The translations under genes were made by a program, and so were the position numbers. From Candidatus Multivoradales bacterium (GTDB lineage: Bacteria; Acidobacteriota; Thermoanaerobaculia; Multivoradales; Multivoraceae), in assembly GCA_965223325.1 (NCBI GenBank), contig CBDCWI010000002.1:1184001-1248000 (forward strand): DNA of 64,000 nt, in the 5' to 3' direction. Shown piece after piece: positions 33,172 through 41,794 of the stretch (its first letter is position 1; the number at the start of each line of letters is the position of its first letter). Under the pieces are notes generated by a model that was given only the letters and a program-made list of their open reading frames with translations, did not search any database and was not told the origin of the DNA.

Positions 33172-34074
33172 ATGCAACCCAAGAAGATTCTCCTGCCGAC
33201 CGACTTCACCGCCGAATCCGTCAAAGCTCTCGAGCGTGGCTTCGACCTCTGTCGGCAATTCGACGCCGAACCGCACTTCGTCCATGTCGTGTTGCAAGTG
33301 GACTACGCGCCCCTCGTCCCACCAGACGTCATGACCGGAAACCTCGGCGATCTCTACGAAGATGTCGCCAAGCGAGCAACAGACTCCTTGCAGGAGATCG
33401 CCGATCGGGTCGCCGTTGGGAGCAATGACTCGGTGGTGCGAGTTCTCACCGGACCCTCGGTCACCCGCACGCTGATCGACTACACCGAGGAACATGACAT
33501 CGACCTCATGGTCGTCGGCACCCACGGCCGCACCGGGGCGAAACGAGTGCTGCTCGGCAGCGAAGCTGAACGGCTGGTGCGCGTTGCCCCATGCCCGGTA
33601 CTCACGGTCGGTCCCGACGTCGACCCCAGGCCGGAGCGGCCGCTCCGCATCCTGGGCGCGCTCGATCTCGCGGATACCAGCCTCGAGGTCGCCCGCAGCG
33701 TACGCGAGCTCAGCGAGCTCTACTCTGCCGACGCTCACTTCATCCACATCGTCGCTCCGGTCATCTTGCCGGCCTACGTCGAGGGCTACACCCAGGTCTC
33801 GGTACCGGTCGACAACCTGCTGGCTCAGGCGAACGAGAAACTGCTCGAGGTCGTCGAAACGGCCGGCGTGGTCGATTCGACACTTCGTGCCTCCTTTGGA
33901 GACACGGCGATCGAAGTCGTCAAGTATGCGAAGGAAACCAACGTCGACCTGATCGTCGTCGCCACCCACGGGCGTAGCGGTTTGCCGCACCTTCTCCTCG
34001 GCTCGGTTGCGGATCGCATCGTCAGGACTGCTCACTGTCCCGTGATGACCGTACGACCCTCGACTTCGGATTGA
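33172..34074 (+). CDS. Tandem-domain universal stress protein
   Basis: KILLPTDF, DLMVVGTHGRTG..R.LLGS.AE..VR.APCPV repeated twice. Confidence 0.93.
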   Translation: MQPKKILLPTDFTAESVKALERGFDLCRQFDAEPHFVHVVLQVDYAPLVPPDVMTGNLGDLYEDVAKRATDSLQEIADRVAVGSNDSVVRVLTGPSVTRTLIDYTEEHDIDLMVVGTHGRTGAKRVLLGSEAERLVRVAPCPVLTVGPDVDPRPERPLRILGALDLADTSLEVARSVRELSELYSADAHFIHIVAPVILPAYVEGYTQVSVPVDNLLAQANEKLLEVVETAGVVDSTLRASFGDTAIEVVKYAKETNVDLIVVATHGRSGLPHLLLGSVADRIVRTAHCPVMTVRPSTSD

Positions 34075-34133
34075 ACTTGGCAGCCAGAGGAGCATCGACA
34101 GCCAACCGTTCGGGTCTTGATAGCGTCGCCCGA

Positions 34134-35651
34134 ATGAACTCCGCGCACACGGACGAGGGGCAGCTGTTTGGGGTCCTTCTCGAGGCGGCAGTCGACGGCA
34201 TCGTCGTGATCGATCGCCGTGGAACCTTGCGCCGTATGAATCACCAGGGGCTCGCCCTCTTCGGTTACGAAGCAGACGAGATCATCGGCAGGAACATCTC
34301 GCAGCTCATGCCTGAGCCCCATGCGAGCCAGCACGACGCCTACGTGAGCCGTTACCTCAAAACAGGTACGAAACGCATCATCGGCATCGGTCGTGAGGTC
34401 CTGGGCAAGCGCAAAGACGGCAGCACCTTCGTCATGGACCTGTCGGTCGGCGAAGGTGAAGTCGACGGGGAGCACTTCTTCATTGGTGTCATGCGCGACC
34501 TCACCGAGCGCAACGCCCTCATCCATGAGCTCCGCGAACGAGAGAGTGAAGTGCGGGGTCTGGTTGAAAACGCACTGGTCGCGACCGGGGCTCTCGACCC
34601 CGAGGGGCGCTTCCTGGGCTGGAACGACTCGTTCGCGCGCGCGCTCCGGACCTCAGATCTGCAAGGCAAGAAGCTCATCGGTTTCCTTCCGACGAATCAG
34701 CAGCGTGACTTCGAACAGGCACTTCGCCGCCTCTCGGAGAGCGGCGAGTCGGAACTGCTCCACGATCGGCGTTTCCAGGTCAATGACGAGGAAACAGACG
34801 AAACACGCGTCGGTGACATTTACCTCTCTCCGGTCCGCGACCTCGACGCCCCCGACGAGCCGATCCATCGGCTCGTAGTCCAGTTCGTCGATCGCACGAC
34901 AGAGGTGCAAGCCGAGCGTGCGGCGCTCGAGGCTCAGAACCGAATCGCCCACCTCAATCGCCTGGGTACGCTCGGTGAAATGGCAGCGGGGATCTCGCAC
35001 GAGGTCAACCAACCCCTGGGCGCGATTTCGAACTATGCACAAGCGGCGCGCTTCATGCTGAGAGCACCCTCGACCGATCCGGAAGCATTGCTCGGCGTGC
35101 TCGAGAAAATCGCCGCCCAGGCAGAACGAGCCGGGAGCGTCATTCGGCGCATGCGCGCGCTGGCAGGCGACACCACTACGGCACGTGAGACCTGCGACCT
35201 CGCCGATTTGATCCATGAGGTCGTTGGGCTGTTCGGGAGCGACGCTCGTTTTGAACTTCCCCGCCTCGATGTCGACCTTGGATCAGACCTACCCGAAGTC
35301 CGAGTCGACCGCGTCCAGATTCAACAGGTGCTCTTGAACTTGCTGCGCAACGCCCTCGATGCCATGGCCGATGTGCCAGTCTACGACCGCCAGCTTCGGC
35401 TCGAGTGTCAGGGTGAACCGAGCCACGTCACCATCAGCGTCGTAGACCGTGGTCACGGCATCATCCCGGAGATCGCCGATCAGCTGACCGACCCGTTCTT
35501 CTCGACCAAAGAGCACGGAATGGGTATGGGCCTGGCTATCTGTGCTTCGATCGTTTCCTCTCACGCCGGCAAGCTCTGGCACTCCGCCAACGAGCCGGCC
35601 CCCGGTGCCACCTTCCATGTTCAACTTCCACTACCGGTTACCTCATCATGA
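34134..35651 (+). CDS. fixL: Heme-PAS O2 sensor histidine kinase, FixL-like (two PAS domains)
   Basis: LMPEPHASQHDAYVSRY...RIIGIGREV.G.RKDG (proximal His, distal Arg), SHEVNQPL H-box, N/G1/F/G2 boxes. Confidence 0.88.
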   Translation: MNSAHTDEGQLFGVLLEAAVDGIVVIDRRGTLRRMNHQGLALFGYEADEIIGRNISQLMPEPHASQHDAYVSRYLKTGTKRIIGIGREVLGKRKDGSTFVMDLSVGEGEVDGEHFFIGVMRDLTERNALIHELRERESEVRGLVENALVATGALDPEGRFLGWNDSFARALRTSDLQGKKLIGFLPTNQQRDFEQALRRLSESGESELLHDRRFQVNDEETDETRVGDIYLSPVRDLDAPDEPIHRLVVQFVDRTTEVQAERAALEAQNRIAHLNRLGTLGEMAAGISHEVNQPLGAISNYAQAARFMLRAPSTDPEALLGVLEKIAAQAERAGSVIRRMRALAGDTTTARETCDLADLIHEVVGLFGSDARFELPRLDVDLGSDLPEVRVDRVQIQQVLLNLLRNALDAMADVPVYDRQLRLECQGEPSHVTISVVDRGHGIIPEIADQLTDPFFSTKEHGMGMGLAICASIVSSHAGKLWHSANEPAPGATFHVQLPLPVTSS

Positions 35652-36262
35652 CTAGTACTCCTCTACAGACAGTCTTCATCGTCGACGATGACGAGGCCTT
35701 TGCCGACTCGGTCTCGGTTCTGTGCCAATCCGTTGGCATCGCCTCGCAGACTTTCGAGTCTGCCGAAGAGTTTCTCGAGGAATTCGTACCCTCCTGGAAC
35801 GGTTGTCTGGTGCTCGACGTGCGCATGCCCAGGAAAAGCGGGCTAGATCTCTACAAGGAGCTCACCGAACTCGGCAACACCATGCCGGTGATCTTCATCA
35901 CCGGTCACGGGGACATCGGGATGGCGGTCAGCGCGATGAAAGACGGGGCCTTCGACTTTTTGACCAAGCCGTTCTCACATCAGGAACTTCTCGATCGAAT
36001 CCACACCGCGCTCGCCGGCGCGAGCAGAGAGCGAGCTGCCGGTGCCGAGCGGGCCGAGCTCTCTACCCGTCACCAGGGGCTGACGCCGCGCGAAAGCGAG
36101 GTCTTCGACCTGGTGGTCGCCGGCAACGCCAACAAGGTCATCGCCAGCCGTCTCGGAATCAGCCAGCGGACCGTCGAGCTTCACCGGGCCCAGGTGATGG
36201 CGAAGATGAAGGCCGATTCCCTGGCCGACCTGGTGCGCATGGCGGTCGCGATCGGTCAATAG
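35648..36262 (+). CDS. fixJ: FixJ-family response regulator (REC-LuxR HTH)
   Basis: VDDD, LDVRMP, ITGHGD..MAV.AMK.GA.DFL.KP, LTPRE.EV..NKVIA.RLGIS.RTVE.HRA.VM.KM. Confidence 0.92.
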   Translation: MTSTPLQTVFIVDDDEAFADSVSVLCQSVGIASQTFESAEEFLEEFVPSWNGCLVLDVRMPRKSGLDLYKELTELGNTMPVIFITGHGDIGMAVSAMKDGAFDFLTKPFSHQELLDRIHTALAGASRERAAGAERAELSTRHQGLTPRESEVFDLVVAGNANKVIASRLGISQRTVELHRAQVMAKMKADSLADLVRMAVAIGQ

Positions 36263-36381
36263 GCGACCGCGGCCAAACGCCGGCCGTGGCGAACCCTAGA
36301 GCCGCTTCGTGTTCGGGCGCCCTACCCTCTTCATGCCCTCGGCGCGCTCTGCGAGACCCCTAGGGCCCGCCAGCACCGCTC

Positions 36382-36966
36382 TCAGTGCGGGTGGTGGATC
36401 CCCTCCGAAGGCATCTCGGGCTTGTACTCCTGATGACAAGCCTCGCAGGCCGCAATGATGCTGTCGCCGGCCCGAAGGACGCGCTCGAGGTCGCGAGCCT
36501 GGGCCCCGGCATAACCTTCCATTGCGGCATCGGTCATGAGACGGGCCTGTTGCTGCCACGGCAGCTGCCGCACCCAGCCGTCATCGGAAGGTCCGGTCCC
36601 GCCGGCGGTGATCGCCGTGCCCGAGATCGCCAGCTGAACGGCGTGATGTTCGACTTCCTGCCAGTCTTTCTCGGTCACTGGAGCACCGCCTTCGCGACCG
36701 AGGTCCCACAGCTCGTGTGCTGAGTGGTCGACCAGCGCCACCATGACCGCGTTGAGACTGAGGGCTGGCTCGACGGCCGGCTCGAGACACCCGAGCTCAC
36801 ACTCCTCGACCGCACTCTTGACAGCAGTTTCGATCTCGTCAGCGGCTGCCGCAGACGTGGTTGCCGCAGACCCGTTGCCTTCCTGCGGCGCACAGGCTGC
36901 AAACGTCAGCAAGCCGAATGCGATCGAGAGACCGGTGAGAGCGAGAAGACCTGAGTTGCGTTCCAT
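36382..36966 (-). CDS. Lipoprotein with C-terminal CxxCH, cytochrome c'-like (class II)
   Basis: Lipobox FAAC, helical body, CEACH near the C-terminus. Confidence 0.72.
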   Translation of the reverse strand: MERNSGLLALTGLSIAFGLLTFAACAPQEGNGSAATTSAAAADEIETAVKSAVEECELGCLEPAVEPALSLNAVMVALVDHSAHELWDLGREGGAPVTEKDWQEVEHHAVQLAISGTAITAGGTGPSDDGWVRQLPWQQQARLMTDAAMEGYAGAQARDLERVLRAGDSIIAACEACHQEYKPEMPSEGIHHPH

Positions 36967-37073
36967 CTTCCTCAACCTCCTTCAAGCGGCCCATCGTGGC
37001 CCTCTTAGAGGGCCATGGGCAAGACGTCTGTTTCTTTCGGTCACCATCGCAGACGGGTGACACCTCGCTCCAG

Positions 37074-37109
37074 TAGGGCTCTCCCGTAACCACCTAGGGG
37101 TTTCCCGAA
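37074..37109. promoter_or_regulatory. Two putative FixJ/NarL-family binding sites
   Basis: TAGGGCTCTCCCGTA (37074-37088) and TAGGGGTTTCCCGAA (37095-37109), 21-bp period, in a divergent promoter region. Confidence 0.5.
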
Positions 37110-37206
37110 CGCACAGCGGTCTCTTGCCTGGATCACGACCTTGGATAAGGTCGATCCAACCGTTCCCCCTTTCGTTTTCACCCACAACCCATGGAGAGCG
37201 CAGCTC

Positions 37207-37590
37207 ATGGCCGACCCCCAGGAATCCGTCTACGACCGAATCGGCGGCAGCGAGGTGATCGATGAACTCGTCACGCAGTTTTACGAAAGGGTGTTTGCTG
37301 ACCCCGAGCTGGCGACGTTCTTCCAGGACACTGCCCGGGAGAAGCTGATCAAGATGCAGCGCGAGTTCTTCGCCGCCGCACTCGGCGGACCGATCAAGTA
37401 CTCCGGTTTGTCACTGGCCCACGCGCACCATGGCCGCGGCATCCGCCGCCGACACTTCCAGCGCTACGTCGGCCACCTGGTCGATACCCTGGAGGGAATG
37501 AACGTTGGCGACGATGAGATGCGCGACGTCATCGAAAGGGTCGACACCTACGTTACGGAAATCACCGGCTCGATGGGCGATGCCGGATAG
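37207..37590 (+). CDS. Group I truncated hemoglobin (GlbN/trHbN-like)
   Basis: SVYDRIGG, FY.RV.ADP.L..FF, LGGP.KY.G..L..AH, HF. Confidence 0.9.
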   Translation: MADPQESVYDRIGGSEVIDELVTQFYERVFADPELATFFQDTAREKLIKMQREFFAAALGGPIKYSGLSLAHAHHGRGIRRRHFQRYVGHLVDTLEGMNVGDDEMRDVIERVDTYVTEITGSMGDAG

Positions 37591-37615
37591 GCGGCAGGCG
37601 CGAGGAAGGAGCGAG

Positions 37616-37651
37616 AAAAAAATAGACCGACCCTTGTTCCGAGAGTCGGCC
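37616..37651 (-). terminator. Intrinsic terminator on the minus strand
   Basis: Minus strand reads GGCCGACUCU-CGGAACA-AGGGUCGGUC-UAUUUUUUU. Confidence 0.8.
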
Positions 37652-37787
37652 TTTCATAAGGAGAGTCTGCTTGTCCGGGCGGATGAGAACGGCGGAACGC
37701 ACAGGAACTGCCATCAGGGGAATGGGCACCTCGGGGACGATGGTTAAGTGCCAATACGCTCCACCGTTCTCACCCACCGCCAGACAC
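37616..37787 (-). ncRNA. Candidate sigma54-dependent small RNA (~170 nt), family unrecognised
   Basis: Promoter, long stem with G-U pairs on the minus strand, and terminator are collinear; no credible ORF. Confidence 0.65.
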
Positions 37788-37797
37788 CCCTCCCTAG

Positions 37798-37814
37798 AGC
37801 AACCCCCGTGCCAG
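37798..37814 (-). promoter_or_regulatory. Sigma54 -24/-12 promoter
   Basis: Minus strand CTGGCACGGGGGTTGCT matches the consensus YTGGCACG-N4-TTGCW exactly. Confidence 0.8.
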
Positions 37815-38057
37815 CCCGCTCCAGGCTGCAGGAAAAGGCCTCCAACCCTGTATCTTCCGCCGGTTCAACCCTTTAGAGACGGGCCTCTGGGTCGGCTCGA
37901 GGCCTCCTGGCTCCCCCTGCTTCGCCGGCGGTGCTCCAGATCGAAGCACGCCAACAAGCTGGGCACAGACCGCTCAGTTCCGGTCCGGCGCAACCGATAC
38001 ACCTGAGCTACAATACATTTAATAGTCTGCATATTTGTACTATTTCTCTCAAGGAGG

Positions 38058-39710
38058 GTGCCTGTGTCACTCGACCGGTTCTTGTTCGCCAGCGGCCTGC
38101 TCTGGCTCGTCGCCATCTTCTTTGCCCTTGCGGCCAGGGGCCAGGGCTGGGACCAAACGATCTGGGTCCTCCAGCAACACCCCAGCGCTTCCGACGCCAA
38201 CCCGGGCAGTCAAAGCCTGCCACTCGAGACCATCCAGGAAGCCGTCGACCGGGCTCTCGTCAACAAGCGCGCCGAGCGCTCGACCCGCGTCGTCATTGGA
38301 GCGGGTCTCTACCGCGAGTCCGTTCTCTTCGACCGCTACACCAACCACCCCAGCAATCAACCGGGCAACTCGACGGCGATGCTGGTCGAGCGCGACCCCG
38401 ACATAGAGCCCGGATCGGTCGTTATCTCGGGAGCCGACCTGTGGACAGACTGGAGCGCGGCCGGTGAAGGCCGGTTCACACACGCCTGGCCTCACGATTG
38501 GGGCGAGGCAGCCAGCGACCCGACGGGGGTTCCGCCGCTCTCTCAGCGCCGTGAGATGGTCATTGTCGACGGCCAGATGTTGCGCCAGGTAGCCGCACCC
38601 GAGGAGCTCGGGCCCGGCACCTTCTTCGTCGATGAGGCGGCAGATCTCCTCACCCTCGAGACCAGCGACGGTCAACTGGGAAACGTCGAGGTCGCGGTCC
38701 GCGAGCGACTCTGGTGGCTGGAGTTCGAGAGCAACATCACGATACGCGGACTGTCTTTCGAGCACGCCTCGACGCCGTGGCTAAACGGTTACGGTGCGGT
38801 CCGCACGAGCGGCGGTCAAAACGTCACCTTCGAAGACCTGGTCATCCGCTTCGTCAATGGCAACGGGATCTATCTAGAAGGCGAAGACCTGACCCTCAGG
38901 CGGGCGGACCTTTCGGACGTGGGCTACAACGCCTGGGCGACCTTCCACGCCAAGAACGTGCTCATCGAAGACATCGTCGCCAACCGCAACAACTGGCGCG
39001 GCAAGCTCACGGGCTGGGCCAGCTGGTCGGTCGGCAACAAGCTGTTCGGTATCCATGGGCTCACGCTCCGCCGTTACAGCGCCCACGACAACTTCGGTCG
39101 CGGTCTCTGGCTTGACTACGACCTCCAGGACGTCCTCATCGAAGACATCGAACTAGAGGGCAACAGCCGCGATGGCATCTTCATCGAGGCCAGTCCGGGC
39201 CCCATCGTCATCCGCCGCGCCCGTATCTGTGGCAATGGCGAGTACGGCATCCTGACGGCCAACTCGATGGACACGACCCTCGATCGCGTCACCGTATGTG
39301 ATAACCAGCAGGCGGCCCTCATGGTCTCGGGAGAAGACGACGGACGCACGATCACCGACTGGGAGACCGGCACGCAGCACACCCTCTTCCTCGACAACTG
39401 GACCATCCTCGCCTCGTGCTTTGCCGGCAAAGAGGACTTCCTGTTCGCGACCACCCTCGACAACAGCTGGTCGACCTGGCTCGCCAACCTGAACTCCGGC
39501 TGGAACGACTGGCGGCACGATCAAACCGCGCTCGCCTTCCGCCTCCAACATGGCGAGGTGGTCGACTTCGAGGGCTTTCGAAGCCAAACCGGCGAAGGCT
39601 CTCGGTCTCTCTTCGCCATGACCGACGCCTCAGCCTGCCGACCCTTCCTGTTCGTCGACGACTTCGAGAGTGGCGCGCTGGGCCGCTGGTGGTTGGCGCG
39701 TGGCAGTTGA
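38058..39710 (+). CDS. Secreted right-handed beta-helix (pectin-lyase-like) protein with C-terminal FxDDFESG motif
   Basis: Signal peptide, ASDANPGS..PL.TIQ.A, GLYRE, PbH1-like repeats (GLWLDYD, GIFIEAS), strong AAGGAGGG RBS. Confidence 0.85.
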   Translation: MPVSLDRFLFASGLLWLVAIFFALAARGQGWDQTIWVLQQHPSASDANPGSQSLPLETIQEAVDRALVNKRAERSTRVVIGAGLYRESVLFDRYTNHPSNQPGNSTAMLVERDPDIEPGSVVISGADLWTDWSAAGEGRFTHAWPHDWGEAASDPTGVPPLSQRREMVIVDGQMLRQVAAPEELGPGTFFVDEAADLLTLETSDGQLGNVEVAVRERLWWLEFESNITIRGLSFEHASTPWLNGYGAVRTSGGQNVTFEDLVIRFVNGNGIYLEGEDLTLRRADLSDVGYNAWATFHAKNVLIEDIVANRNNWRGKLTGWASWSVGNKLFGIHGLTLRRYSAHDNFGRGLWLDYDLQDVLIEDIELEGNSRDGIFIEASPGPIVIRRARICGNGEYGILTANSMDTTLDRVTVCDNQQAALMVSGEDDGRTITDWETGTQHTLFLDNWTILASCFAGKEDFLFATTLDNSWSTWLANLNSGWNDWRHDQTALAFRLQHGEVVDFEGFRSQTGEGSRSLFAMTDASACRPFLFVDDFESGALGRWWLARGS

Positions 39711-39861
39711 GGCTCGAGCGGCGCGCAACCGATCGAGGAACCTCATGTTCTCTGGTTGATACGCTTCTGCCTGGGTCTACGGCCCACCTTCCCAACCACC
39801 CTCCAGGAAACGGTCCCCGATGCCTCCCAAGCCCGCCAGCGCCACCGAAGGCGCTCCAACA

Positions 39862-40704
39862 ATGATCATTCCCAACGGCACGCGGATCGAGGTCGACGGC
39901 CACAATCAGCTTTCGATTCGGACTCCCGGCAACCTCGTGCTTCAGAACTCCGGTTCGTACGGCACCATCGAGTCGGCCACCGGCTCGATTCGCATCGAGC
40001 CCAACGTCCAGGTCGAAGCGGTTACCGTAGAGTGCGCCGACGTCTGCTACATCCAGGGCAGCCTCACGGCGTGGAAGGTCAAGGCTCGCTCGATCGAGCT
40101 CGAGGAGTCGGCCCGCGCCCACATCATCCTGCAGGAGACCGAGAGTCTGCACATTGGGCGCGAGGCTCGGATGGTGGGCAACTTCCGGTCGGAGAAGGAG
40201 CTCTTCCTGCTGCTCTCACGCTTCGCCAAACAACTGCGCGGCATGCCCTTCTACAACGAAAAACGCATGTCAGTTCCCCAGGACATGATTGCCGGCGCCG
40301 AGGCGGTGCTCGACATCACCAGCACCGGCAGTTCGCCGGCAGCGGCGCCCGAGCACGATCCCTATGCCGGGCGCTACGGGCATCCCGAGGCGGCACCCAT
40401 CGCAGCGAACCTCGCAGAAGACGCTGCCCCGCCGGCACCCGCACCGGGTGGTGACGAACTGCCCGAGGGCCTCTTGTTTGCCCTCGTACTGCTCGAGCGC
40501 GAAGGTGAACGCCCGGGCAACGGCCCGCGCGCCGATCAGGCCGTCAGCCAGCTTCTGAAGCTGCTACGCAGTCGCGACCTCGAAACGCTCGGCGACACCT
40601 ACCATGAGCTCTTCCGGAGTATTGTCGAGCCAAGCGACGACATCAGCCGCGCGCGCGAGATGGTTCACGGGCACTTCTCAACTGCTCCGCAGCCGGCCTC
40701 CTAG
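39862..40704 (+). CDS. Hypothetical protein with bactofilin/beta-solenoid-like N-terminal domain
   Basis: Repeating G.I.I / V.A..V beta units ending in ARMVGNF, Ala/Pro linker, helical C-terminal domain. Confidence 0.6.
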   Translation: MIIPNGTRIEVDGHNQLSIRTPGNLVLQNSGSYGTIESATGSIRIEPNVQVEAVTVECADVCYIQGSLTAWKVKARSIELEESARAHIILQETESLHIGREARMVGNFRSEKELFLLLSRFAKQLRGMPFYNEKRMSVPQDMIAGAEAVLDITSTGSSPAAAPEHDPYAGRYGHPEAAPIAANLAEDAAPPAPAPGGDELPEGLLFALVLLEREGERPGNGPRADQAVSQLLKLLRSRDLETLGDTYHELFRSIVEPSDDISRAREMVHGHFSTAPQPAS

Positions 40705-40723
40705 AAGGGTTGCGAGCCAGCCC

Positions 40724-41794
40724 ATGATGCGGTTTCTGTTTCGGCTCCTCCTGATCCTCCTGGTCGTTGGAGGTCTCTTCTACGTCTACACAGCCAACCG
40801 GGCCGGCGAGTTCCGCTCGCTCGGAGAGCCGGTCGCTCTTGCCTGTGAGTCAGTTTCTGGCATGCCCGGCGCCGAAGACATCACCATCGACTACGCCAGC
40901 CGAACAGCTCTCGTGTCGTCTTTCGATCGTGCCCGGGCCCTCGCGGACGAGAACGTCCTGGGCGCGATCTTTGCGCTTCCCCTCGACGGCGGCGCGCCAC
41001 GGAACCTGACCGCCGACCTCGATCTCGAGCTGCGCCCACACGGGCTTTCGCTCTTGGTCCCGGGCAGCTTGCGCGAAGACCTCACCCAACCGCTCCTGTT
41101 CGTGATCAACCACCCTCTTGATCGCAGCGAACCGGACCGGGTCGAAATCTTTGCCTGGGACGGCGAGCACCTCGCCCACCAGCAGACTCTCTCTCATCCC
41201 TCGTTTCGCAACTTCAACGACCTGGCGGCAGTCGACGTCGACTCCTTCTACGCCACCATGGACCACGGCGGGAGCGGCGCCGCCAATACCATCGAGGACT
41301 ATCTCGGTCTGGATCGCGCCGGCGTCCTCTACTACAACGGCGGGAGTGCCACGCAAGTCGCTTTCGATCTCGGCTATGCCAACGGCATTGCGCTCAGCCG
41401 CGAGGGTCGAGTGGTCTACGTCGCCTCGTCGACGAACGCGAAGATCCACGTCTTTGCGCGCGACGCAACCGCCGGCAGGCTCGAGGAAGTTGCACCGATC
41501 GACCTACCAACCCACCCCGACAACCTCGAGATCGACCGACATGGCAGGCTCTGGATCGGAGCGCACCCTCGCCTGCTGACCTTCGCCCGCCATGCCAGCG
41601 ACCCCGAGCGCCTGTCACCATCCGAGGCGCTCTGGGTCGACCCTGACGGTCAGACCGATCCGCCCATCCGCACTGTCTACCTCGACCCGGGCGACGAACT
41701 CTCGGGGTCGAGCGTTGCAGCGCCCTTCGGCGACCGCATCCTGATCGGCTCGGTCTTCGAACCCCATCTCCTGAACTGCGGCTACGGCCGCTGA
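40724..41794 (+). CDS. Paraoxonase/arylesterase-like six-bladed beta-propeller (SMP-30 family)
   Basis: GAEDI, PHGLS, FVINH, NDL, ANGI, PDNL; N-terminal membrane anchor. Confidence 0.85.
   Translation: MMRFLFRLLLILLVVGGLFYVYTANRAGEFRSLGEPVALACESVSGMPGAEDITIDYASRTALVSSFDRARALADENVLGAIFALPLDGGAPRNLTADLDLELRPHGLSLLVPGSLREDLTQPLLFVINHPLDRSEPDRVEIFAWDGEHLAHQQTLSHPSFRNFNDLAAVDVDSFYATMDHGGSGAANTIEDYLGLDRAGVLYYNGGSATQVAFDLGYANGIALSREGRVVYVASSTNAKIHVFARDATAGRLEEVAPIDLPTHPDNLEIDRHGRLWIGAHPRLLTFARHASDPERLSPSEALWVDPDGQTDPPIRTVYLDPGDELSGSSVAAPFGDRILIGSVFEPHLLNCGYGR

Follow-up and report, generated by a model that had tools for sequence, protein, structure and literature searches.

The window, that is, the whole 64,000-nucleotide stretch of DNA that was analysed (G000:C2:1184001-1248000), belongs to a two-contig genome of 6.69 Mb with a G+C content of 64%. 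Within it, a predicted small RNA gene occupies the minus strand of a 467-bp gap that separates two plus-strand genes, one encoding a bacterial globin and the other a Beta_helix/NosD-like protein (Table 1). For the Beta_helix gene, the GTG at 38064 is a likelier start than 38058, since the sequence AAGGAGG (38051-57, plus strand) abuts 38058 directly and stands 6 nt ahead of 38064. On the globin side, positions 34071-37590 hold genes for a PAS histidine kinase, a GerE (LuxR-type) response regulator, a cytochrome c'-like protein and the truncated globin, a cluster that may form a set for sensing gases or redox state and that is absent from the equivalent locus of the sister species considered below. 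The cytochrome c'-like protein carries a C-terminal CxxCH, and its Pfam match is weak (21.6 bits, below the cut-off). A few contigs of 151-239 nt from four low-share DNA runs are identical to the window, with zero variants.

Table 1. Features of the predicted RNA gene and its immediate neighbours (positions are those of the window).
Feature	Position	Strand	Basis and remarks
Bacterial globin gene	37141-37590	+	Pfam; 3' end faces the RNA gene (convergent)
U-tail AUUUUUUU (U7)	37616..37623	-	Sequence; UAUUUUUUU invariant in the sister species
Intrinsic terminator hairpin, 11 bp, 7-nt loop	37624..37652	-	Terminator search
Linker AGCAGACUCUCCUUAUGAA containing CUCUCCUU (37665-37658)	37653..37671	-	Unpaired probability ~0.8-0.9 in both species
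Long imperfect hairpin, nt 2-116, 115 nt, 25-bp core helix	37672..37786	-	Minimum free energy fold and base-pair probabilities
Apical loop region with C-rich motifs UCCCC, GAGGUGCCCA and UUCCCCU	37718..37737	-	Closed by CCAUCG/UGAUGG
Predicted sRNA, 172 nt	37616..37787	-	Fold; counterpart in the sister species (L009 1630 to 1459) likewise 172 nt
Predicted transcription start, G	37787	-	12 nt downstream of the -12 C (37799), sigma-54 spacing
Sigma-54 type -24/-12 promoter, TGGCAC-GGGGG-TTGCT	37798..37813	-	Sequence match
IHF-like string TCAACCCTTTA (TCAA-N4-TTA)	37865..37875	+	String match
Beta_helix/NosD-like gene	38058-39710	+	Divergent from the RNA gene, on its upstream side

An initial sequence-only reading of this DNA had placed a perfect sigma-54 promoter at 37814-37798 of the minus strand, and the promoter-containing string CTGGCACGGGGGTTGCT is indeed found there. 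The promoter is kept in the sister species (G001, a MAG of the same genus labelled as uncultured Acidobacteriota), where it reads cGGCAC-N5-TTGCT and stands at the same distance to the conserved RNA start. Across this footprint GGCAC and TTGCT are unchanged, three of the five spacer positions are substituted, the segment between -11 and -2 has diverged, and conservation picks up again at GGGUGUCUGG, the predicted start, with zero indels between TTGCT and that sequence. The +1 was placed by standard sigma-54 spacing from the -12 element, and by this spacing both predicted RNAs begin G-UGUCUGG and are 172 nt long. One copy of the motif TGGCAC-N5-TTGCW is present in the 64-kb window, where 0.10 would be expected, and at least one match appears in 9 of 100 shuffles; taken alone, this count is only mildly unusual. 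Genome-wide there are 13 copies, not far above the ~5-10 expected (a rough estimate from base composition and window-shuffle scaling), and 11 of these lie outside crude gene calls, which cover ~75% of the genome. By eye, at least two of the 13 look intragenic, one of them encoding a subtilase-like GTSxAAPH motif. No sigma-70-like promoter was found in 37000-38500.

Comparison of the DNA upstream of the promoter in the two species identified no activator site. For the IHF-like string, the window has the 8-mer AAAGGGTT at -61 relative to the promoter and the sister species has its reverse complement at -62, an arrangement roughly estimated to arise by chance in ~1 in 20 such comparisons. The remaining 7- to 9-mers common to both upstream regions stand at differing distances, and the shared 8- and 9-mers are at or near chance level.

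The genome encodes the proteins that such a promoter would use, as well as Hfq. The gene rpoN, whose absence the sequence-only reading had held would speak against its proposal, is present (Sigma54_DBD, 224.5 bits), as are enhancer-binding proteins (24 Sigma54_activat matches, of which 20 exceed 120 bits) and hfq (62.1 bits, C1:79812-79991). No Sigma54_activat match falls inside the window, the nearest being ~60 kb away, and no activator gene adjoins the RNA gene in the annotated stretch 34071-41794. The glutamine synthetase gene glnA is a textbook sigma-54 target, and a perfect TGGCAC-N5-TTGCT is located ~130 nt upstream of glnA in this genome (C2:3013274, minus strand; L075). The identity of glnA was confirmed by Pfam (Gln-synt_N, Gln-synt_C), an enhancer-binding protein gene lies just downstream (C2:3010500-3011000), and the locus looks like a glnA-ntrC-type arrangement; an NtrC-type site common to glnA and the RNA gene was sought by eye and none was seen. 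Because rpoN, 20 strong enhancer-binding protein matches, the motif at glnA and 11 of 13 motif copies outside the crude gene calls all occur in the same genome, we consider the promoter functional and dependent on an activator, and sigma-54 dependence of the RNA gene appears likely from the sequence data.

Two further occurrences of the motif in the genome were recorded in passing. The version TGGCACGGCCCTTGCT is present at C1:484715 and C1:501598 (minus strand) in two near-identical copies 17 kb apart, each ahead of an ORF, with the ~120 nt upstream and a ~125-nt leader also near-identical, which looks like a duplicated sigma-54-controlled locus. A perfect motif at C2:3266950 (plus strand) is followed by no start codon or called gene within ~390 nt and could belong to a long leader or another non-coding transcript.

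Folding of the minus-strand segment 37790-37612 with RNAfold gave -87.7 kcal/mol (z -5.91, none of 200 shuffles as good), versus -61.5 kcal/mol (z -1.56, 17 of 200 shuffles as good) for the plus strand. The difference arises from eight G.U pairs among the 41 counted pairs of the window RNA, six in the long stem and two in the terminator, which on the plus strand would be A.C mismatches. The strand bias anticipated by the sequence-only reading is thus borne out (z -5.9 versus -1.6), whereas its count of seven such irregularities has to be raised to eight. The stem domain of ~120 nt that it had drawn corresponds to the 115-nt hairpin, located where it had been placed. At the apex, where a CCAUC/GAUGG helix with C-rich loops had been suggested, CCAUCG, GAUGG and GAGGUGCCCA are invariant in the sister species and the other loop motifs are still pyrimidine-rich there (UUCCU, AUCCCCC). 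The GGCACUU/AGGUGCC pseudoknot or alternative helix suggested for the same region is confined to the window RNA, its GCAC being a 4-nt deletion in the sister species, and was not retained. The upper stem as a whole carries this 4-nt deletion and a 2-nt insertion between the species, yet is paired in each. The idea that a UGGCAC in the upper stem mimics the sigma-54 promoter was rejected, this string being present in the window and deleted in the sister species.

Downstream of the long hairpin, the linker AGCAGACUCUCCUUAU (16-20 nt), proposed to be single-stranded, is predicted to be unpaired in both species and is invariant in the sister species, and the longest invariant block of the whole alignment, the 23-nt CCGGACAAGCAGACUCUCCUUAU, takes it in. 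The proposed terminator is likewise present as an 11-pair stem (37652-37624) followed by AUUUUUUU to 37616; the base of the hairpin is A/U-rich, and hairpin plus U-run form the sole terminator-like site in 37000-38500.

A blastn search of 60 relatives returned one true homologue, that of the sister species (81% identity over query positions 69-225). Similarity between the two sequences sets in at GGCAC and is lost after the U-run: from promoter to U-tail 148 of 202 alignment columns are identical, compared with 31 of 89 upstream and 11 of 39 downstream, and for the RNA body alone the mean column identity is 89%. When 20 kb of the sister genome was compared with the window by blastn, the RNA gene was the sole non-coding match, and its identity of 80.6% lies at the upper end of what the coding matches show (66-81%). 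Because these 20 kb match the window on both sides, the locus is ancestral to the genus. The immediate surroundings have been rearranged, with an MBL-fold gene on one side and an arylesterase-like gene on the other in the sister species, and with a pair comprising a 294-aa gene (function not assigned) and the arylesterase-like gene inverted relative to the RNA gene. Large-scale synteny is kept, yet the adjacent genes differ and a neighbouring pair is inverted, which indicates that the RNA unit itself has been retained.

Structural conservation was counted over 41 hand-specified pairs in two sequences, giving 82 cells, of which 81 pair. Four pairs carry changes on both sides, six carry a change on a single side that still allows pairing, and one no longer pairs, a G-C of the core helix that has become A-C in the sister species. 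The terminator contributes nine aligned pairs, three changed on both sides and two on one side, and every cell pairs; helices 1 and 2 contribute 32 pairs, among them one double change, four single changes that leave the pair intact, and the broken pair. In a control in which the partners were slid by 1-3 columns, 36-44% of cells paired and 0 or 1 double change was seen. In a shuffle control, 34 of 500 shuffles reached the observed values; covariation has little power here because there are only two sequences, and most pairs never vary. Both promoter and structure, on whose conservation the sequence-only reading had staked its case, are kept in the single homologue found, as is the terminator.

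The RNA sequence is present in a single copy in each of the two genomes. The unit is thus not a repeat, as the sequence-only reading had considered it might prove to be, and a dispersed repeat of the MITE or REP kind was rejected. A covariance model (R1) built from the two sequences recovered only these two among 57 genomes of the family, together with weak matches in coding DNA (E 0.03-0.9). Among 151 genomes of the order it gave one further match (G179, 28 bits), rejected as a G/C-rich palindromic repeat (L049 1490-1717); a second, similar palindrome copy lies ~170 nt away in that genome, and this may be a REP-like repeat. Among 151 genomes of the class it again gave one further match (G351, scoring 38.6 bits, and 30.9 bits on the opposite strand). 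This is a GC-rich palindrome flanked by divergent genes (L076 1501-1642); it has no GG/GC promoter and no U-tail, is present in one of the 35 genomes of its family and was judged non-homologous. The invariant 23-mer, allowing up to 3 mismatches, was matched in 2 of 300 genomes of the order, and a pattern joining the promoter to CTCTCCTT gave one extra match in the family (G006), which was discarded as it lies inside coding-looking DNA and has no terminator. The genome_contigs collection yielded a match in the sister species only, the metagenome_contigs collection 0 matches to a 19-mer, and the viral_contigs, plasmid and phage collections no match. Matches of 34 nt in several sister-genus genomes (~80% identity, E 0.02-0.6 per genome) were set aside as same-sense matches to a peroxiredoxin coding motif. 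The stretch concerned is part of the 3' arm of the hairpin (37699-37666, minus strand; L014 1501-1534), which, read as codons, gives AVLIRPDKQ and resembles the peroxiredoxin motif VFLIGPDK.

Rfam 15 gave 0 matches in the window at gathering thresholds and, at E<=10, plant miRNA hairpin models only (24-26 bits against thresholds of 137-168), so that the suggestion of an undescribed RNA of ~170 nt stands, with a predicted length of 172 nt. A two-block stem pattern searched in metagenome_contigs had four matches, two of them CyVA-1 RNAs (RF02965) and the others one coding sequence found twice, none of which fits R1. The two CyVA-1 copies (L051:197-283, 60.9 bits; L054:2124-2210, 56.7 bits) carry both core-helix 11-mers, GGGTGAGAACG and CGTTCTCATCC, in their extended closing stem. 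They differ from the window RNA in that the latter has no match to the CyVA-1 model at E<=10 and lacks the conserved CyVA-1 loops, while the copies have no match to R1; the shared 11-mers were judged a coincidence, ~4 chance matches to the pattern being expected in the collection (an estimate). The window RNA is like 6S RNA (RF00013) in its length and its largely double-stranded rod; that identity was rejected, since the 6S model does not match the window RNA and the genome has its canonical 6S RNA at C2:3944112-3944298 (80.8 bits). A CsrA sponge of the CsrB/RsmZ type was also considered, as both terminator loops carry GGA, but no CsrA match was found in the genome, which is 98.2% complete.

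The sequence-only reading had cast the RNA as a trans-acting blocker of ribosome-binding sites, and the search for mRNA targets did not bear this part out, none standing out or being conserved. Tested on 6,999 candidate start regions, the linker gave duplex energies that did not surpass those of nine shuffled linkers. Five sites of 10-11 nt overlap a Shine-Dalgarno sequence; clear orthologues in the sister species exist for two of them, and the extended site is kept in neither. Apart from the RNA gene itself, a target-sense 16-mer with at least 14 of 16 matches occurs in neither genome. Same-sense blastn matches to the 3' arm were rejected because they fall inside coding regions, read as nicotinate phosphoribosyltransferase-like and thymidylate synthase-like, away from start sites.

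Taken together, the locus very likely carries a genuine functional RNA gene, and this is probably a sigma-54-dependent sRNA restricted, among the genomes examined, to one Acidobacteriota genus. The explanation we favour, at a probability of roughly 55%, is an independent 172-nt non-coding RNA gene that would be driven by sigma-54 and act by anti-Shine-Dalgarno pairing. As promoter sequence and conservation suggest, sigma-54 polymerase would bind TGGCAC-N5-TTGCT, and transcription would start solely upon activation of one of the ~20 enhancer-binding proteins in response to a signal. Folding and comparison predict an RNA composed of a 5' hairpin with a C-rich apical loop, the unpaired AGCAGACUCUCCUUAU, and the terminator with its U-tail. 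By analogy with other sRNAs, Hfq may be recruited by the U-tail together with the A/U-rich terminator base, and the CU-rich unpaired segments may pair with purine-rich Shine-Dalgarno regions of distant mRNAs and lower their translation. The layout of hairpin, linker, terminator and U-tail, together with the C-rich loop, suggests such pairing with purine-rich ribosome-binding sites; as a mode of action, anti-Shine-Dalgarno base pairing is put forward tentatively, on analogy, as one possibility.

A sigma-54-driven RNA could also work in another way, with RNase III freeing a 3' fragment that contains the invariant 40 nt, or with a protein being bound or sequestered. The core helix is a near-perfect 25-bp duplex, which is long enough for RNase III, its 3' arm has two changes against four in the 5' arm, the next 23 nt are invariant, and no mRNA target emerged, all of which would fit. 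The difference of four versus two changes is, however, no significant asymmetry, csrA was not found in the 98.2% complete genome, the canonical 6S RNA lies elsewhere, no known protein-binding family in Rfam matches, and base-pairing sRNAs are typically laid out with an exposed CU-rich linker beside a terminator; we therefore regard processing or protein binding as unlikely. A bolder elaboration is a 'pro-sRNA', in which the invariant 3' arm and linker (~40 nt) would be held in the 25-bp duplex by a freer-evolving 5' arm until cleavage or melting releases them, yielding the first sigma-54 riboregulator of Acidobacteriota, with three CU-rich anti-Shine-Dalgarno motifs. If so, one signal to an enhancer-binding protein would be converted into translational repression of many genes, a scheme that we consider decidedly unlikely.

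The remaining alternatives dispense with an independent RNA. Conserved DNA without RNA function, either an orphan sigma-54/activator site next to a palindrome or the relic of a gene fragment, has a precedent in the intragenic and orphan sigma-54 sites known in E. coli (PMC4591121), and the peroxiredoxin-like stretch in the 3' arm would suit a relic. This is nevertheless quite improbable, as the G.U pairs and compensatory changes are consistent with RNA pairing on just one of the two strands, the terminator stem differs in sequence in the sister species yet pairs perfectly, the identity equals or exceeds that of neighbouring coding DNA in a single-copy element, and the E-values of the peroxiredoxin match are at chance level. 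A cis-acting role, as 3'-UTR or terminator of the arylesterase-like gene or as leader of a downstream gene, is prompted by the sister species, in which the arylesterase-like gene lies ~200 nt upstream and the MBL-fold gene ~190 nt downstream of the RNA unit on the same strand. Against it, the unit has its own promoter and strong terminator in both genomes, and in the window no gene could be served in cis because the Beta_helix gene on the upstream side is divergent and the globin gene on the downstream side convergent, which makes such a role highly improbable. Lastly, ORFs of 68, 71 and 111 aa overlap the RNA unit, and the probability that a small protein is encoded on either strand is negligible: GC by codon position looks like that of a coding sequence in none of the ORFs, every reading frame is shifted in the sister species by indels of 4 and 2 nt, and the AUG in the linker is AUC there. 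The 111-aa antisense ORF starting with TTG at 37671 (37671-38006), pointed out by the sequence-only reading, does exist; it is an artefact of G+C-rich sequence, with a GC content by codon position of 0.59/0.64/0.70 versus 0.65/0.39/0.79 for the globin gene and a frame broken in the sister species.

Acidobacteriota are abundant soil bacteria whose RNA regulators are almost wholly uncharted. A 2022 review lists four annotated sRNA families for Acidobacteriota versus 345 for Proteobacteria (PMC9029176, Table 1), and among the titles and abstracts searched no paper was found that ties an Acidobacteriota sRNA to sigma-54 or Hfq. The favoured sRNA gene is a clean promoter-to-terminator unit, usable as a reporter for its activator and signal and as bait for its targets; its reach is limited, the gene having been found in two species of one genus only. 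The gene is probably previously undescribed, while the kind of regulator, the sigma-54 sRNA, is already known.

Rhizobial NfeR1 and the Staphylococcus C-rich-loop sRNAs carry multiple anti-Shine-Dalgarno or C-rich motifs. The window RNA has no homology to them and its motifs differ from one another, whereas it resembles them in presenting the pyrimidine-rich UCCCC, UUCCCCU and CUCUCCUU in unpaired loops and linker, which could pair with GGAG-type sites (NfeR1, 10.1101/2025.11.14.688489; Staphylococcus, PMC9266662). From the proteobacterial sigma-54 sRNAs the window RNA differs in having no sequence or structure match to any of them in Rfam, in coming from a different phylum and from two species of one genus only, and in having no adjoining activator gene in the annotated stretch 34071-41794. 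Pxr of Myxococcus is also a sigma-54-dependent sRNA. Like the sigma-54-dependent trans-acting sRNAs of Proteobacteria, namely Qrr, GlmY/GlmZ, CrcZ/CrcY and NcS25 (PMC10162802, PMC3045617, PMC6292655 and PMC10117139), the predicted RNA gene is small and stands alone between a -24/-12 promoter and an intrinsic terminator, and its genome encodes rpoN, many enhancer-binding proteins and hfq.
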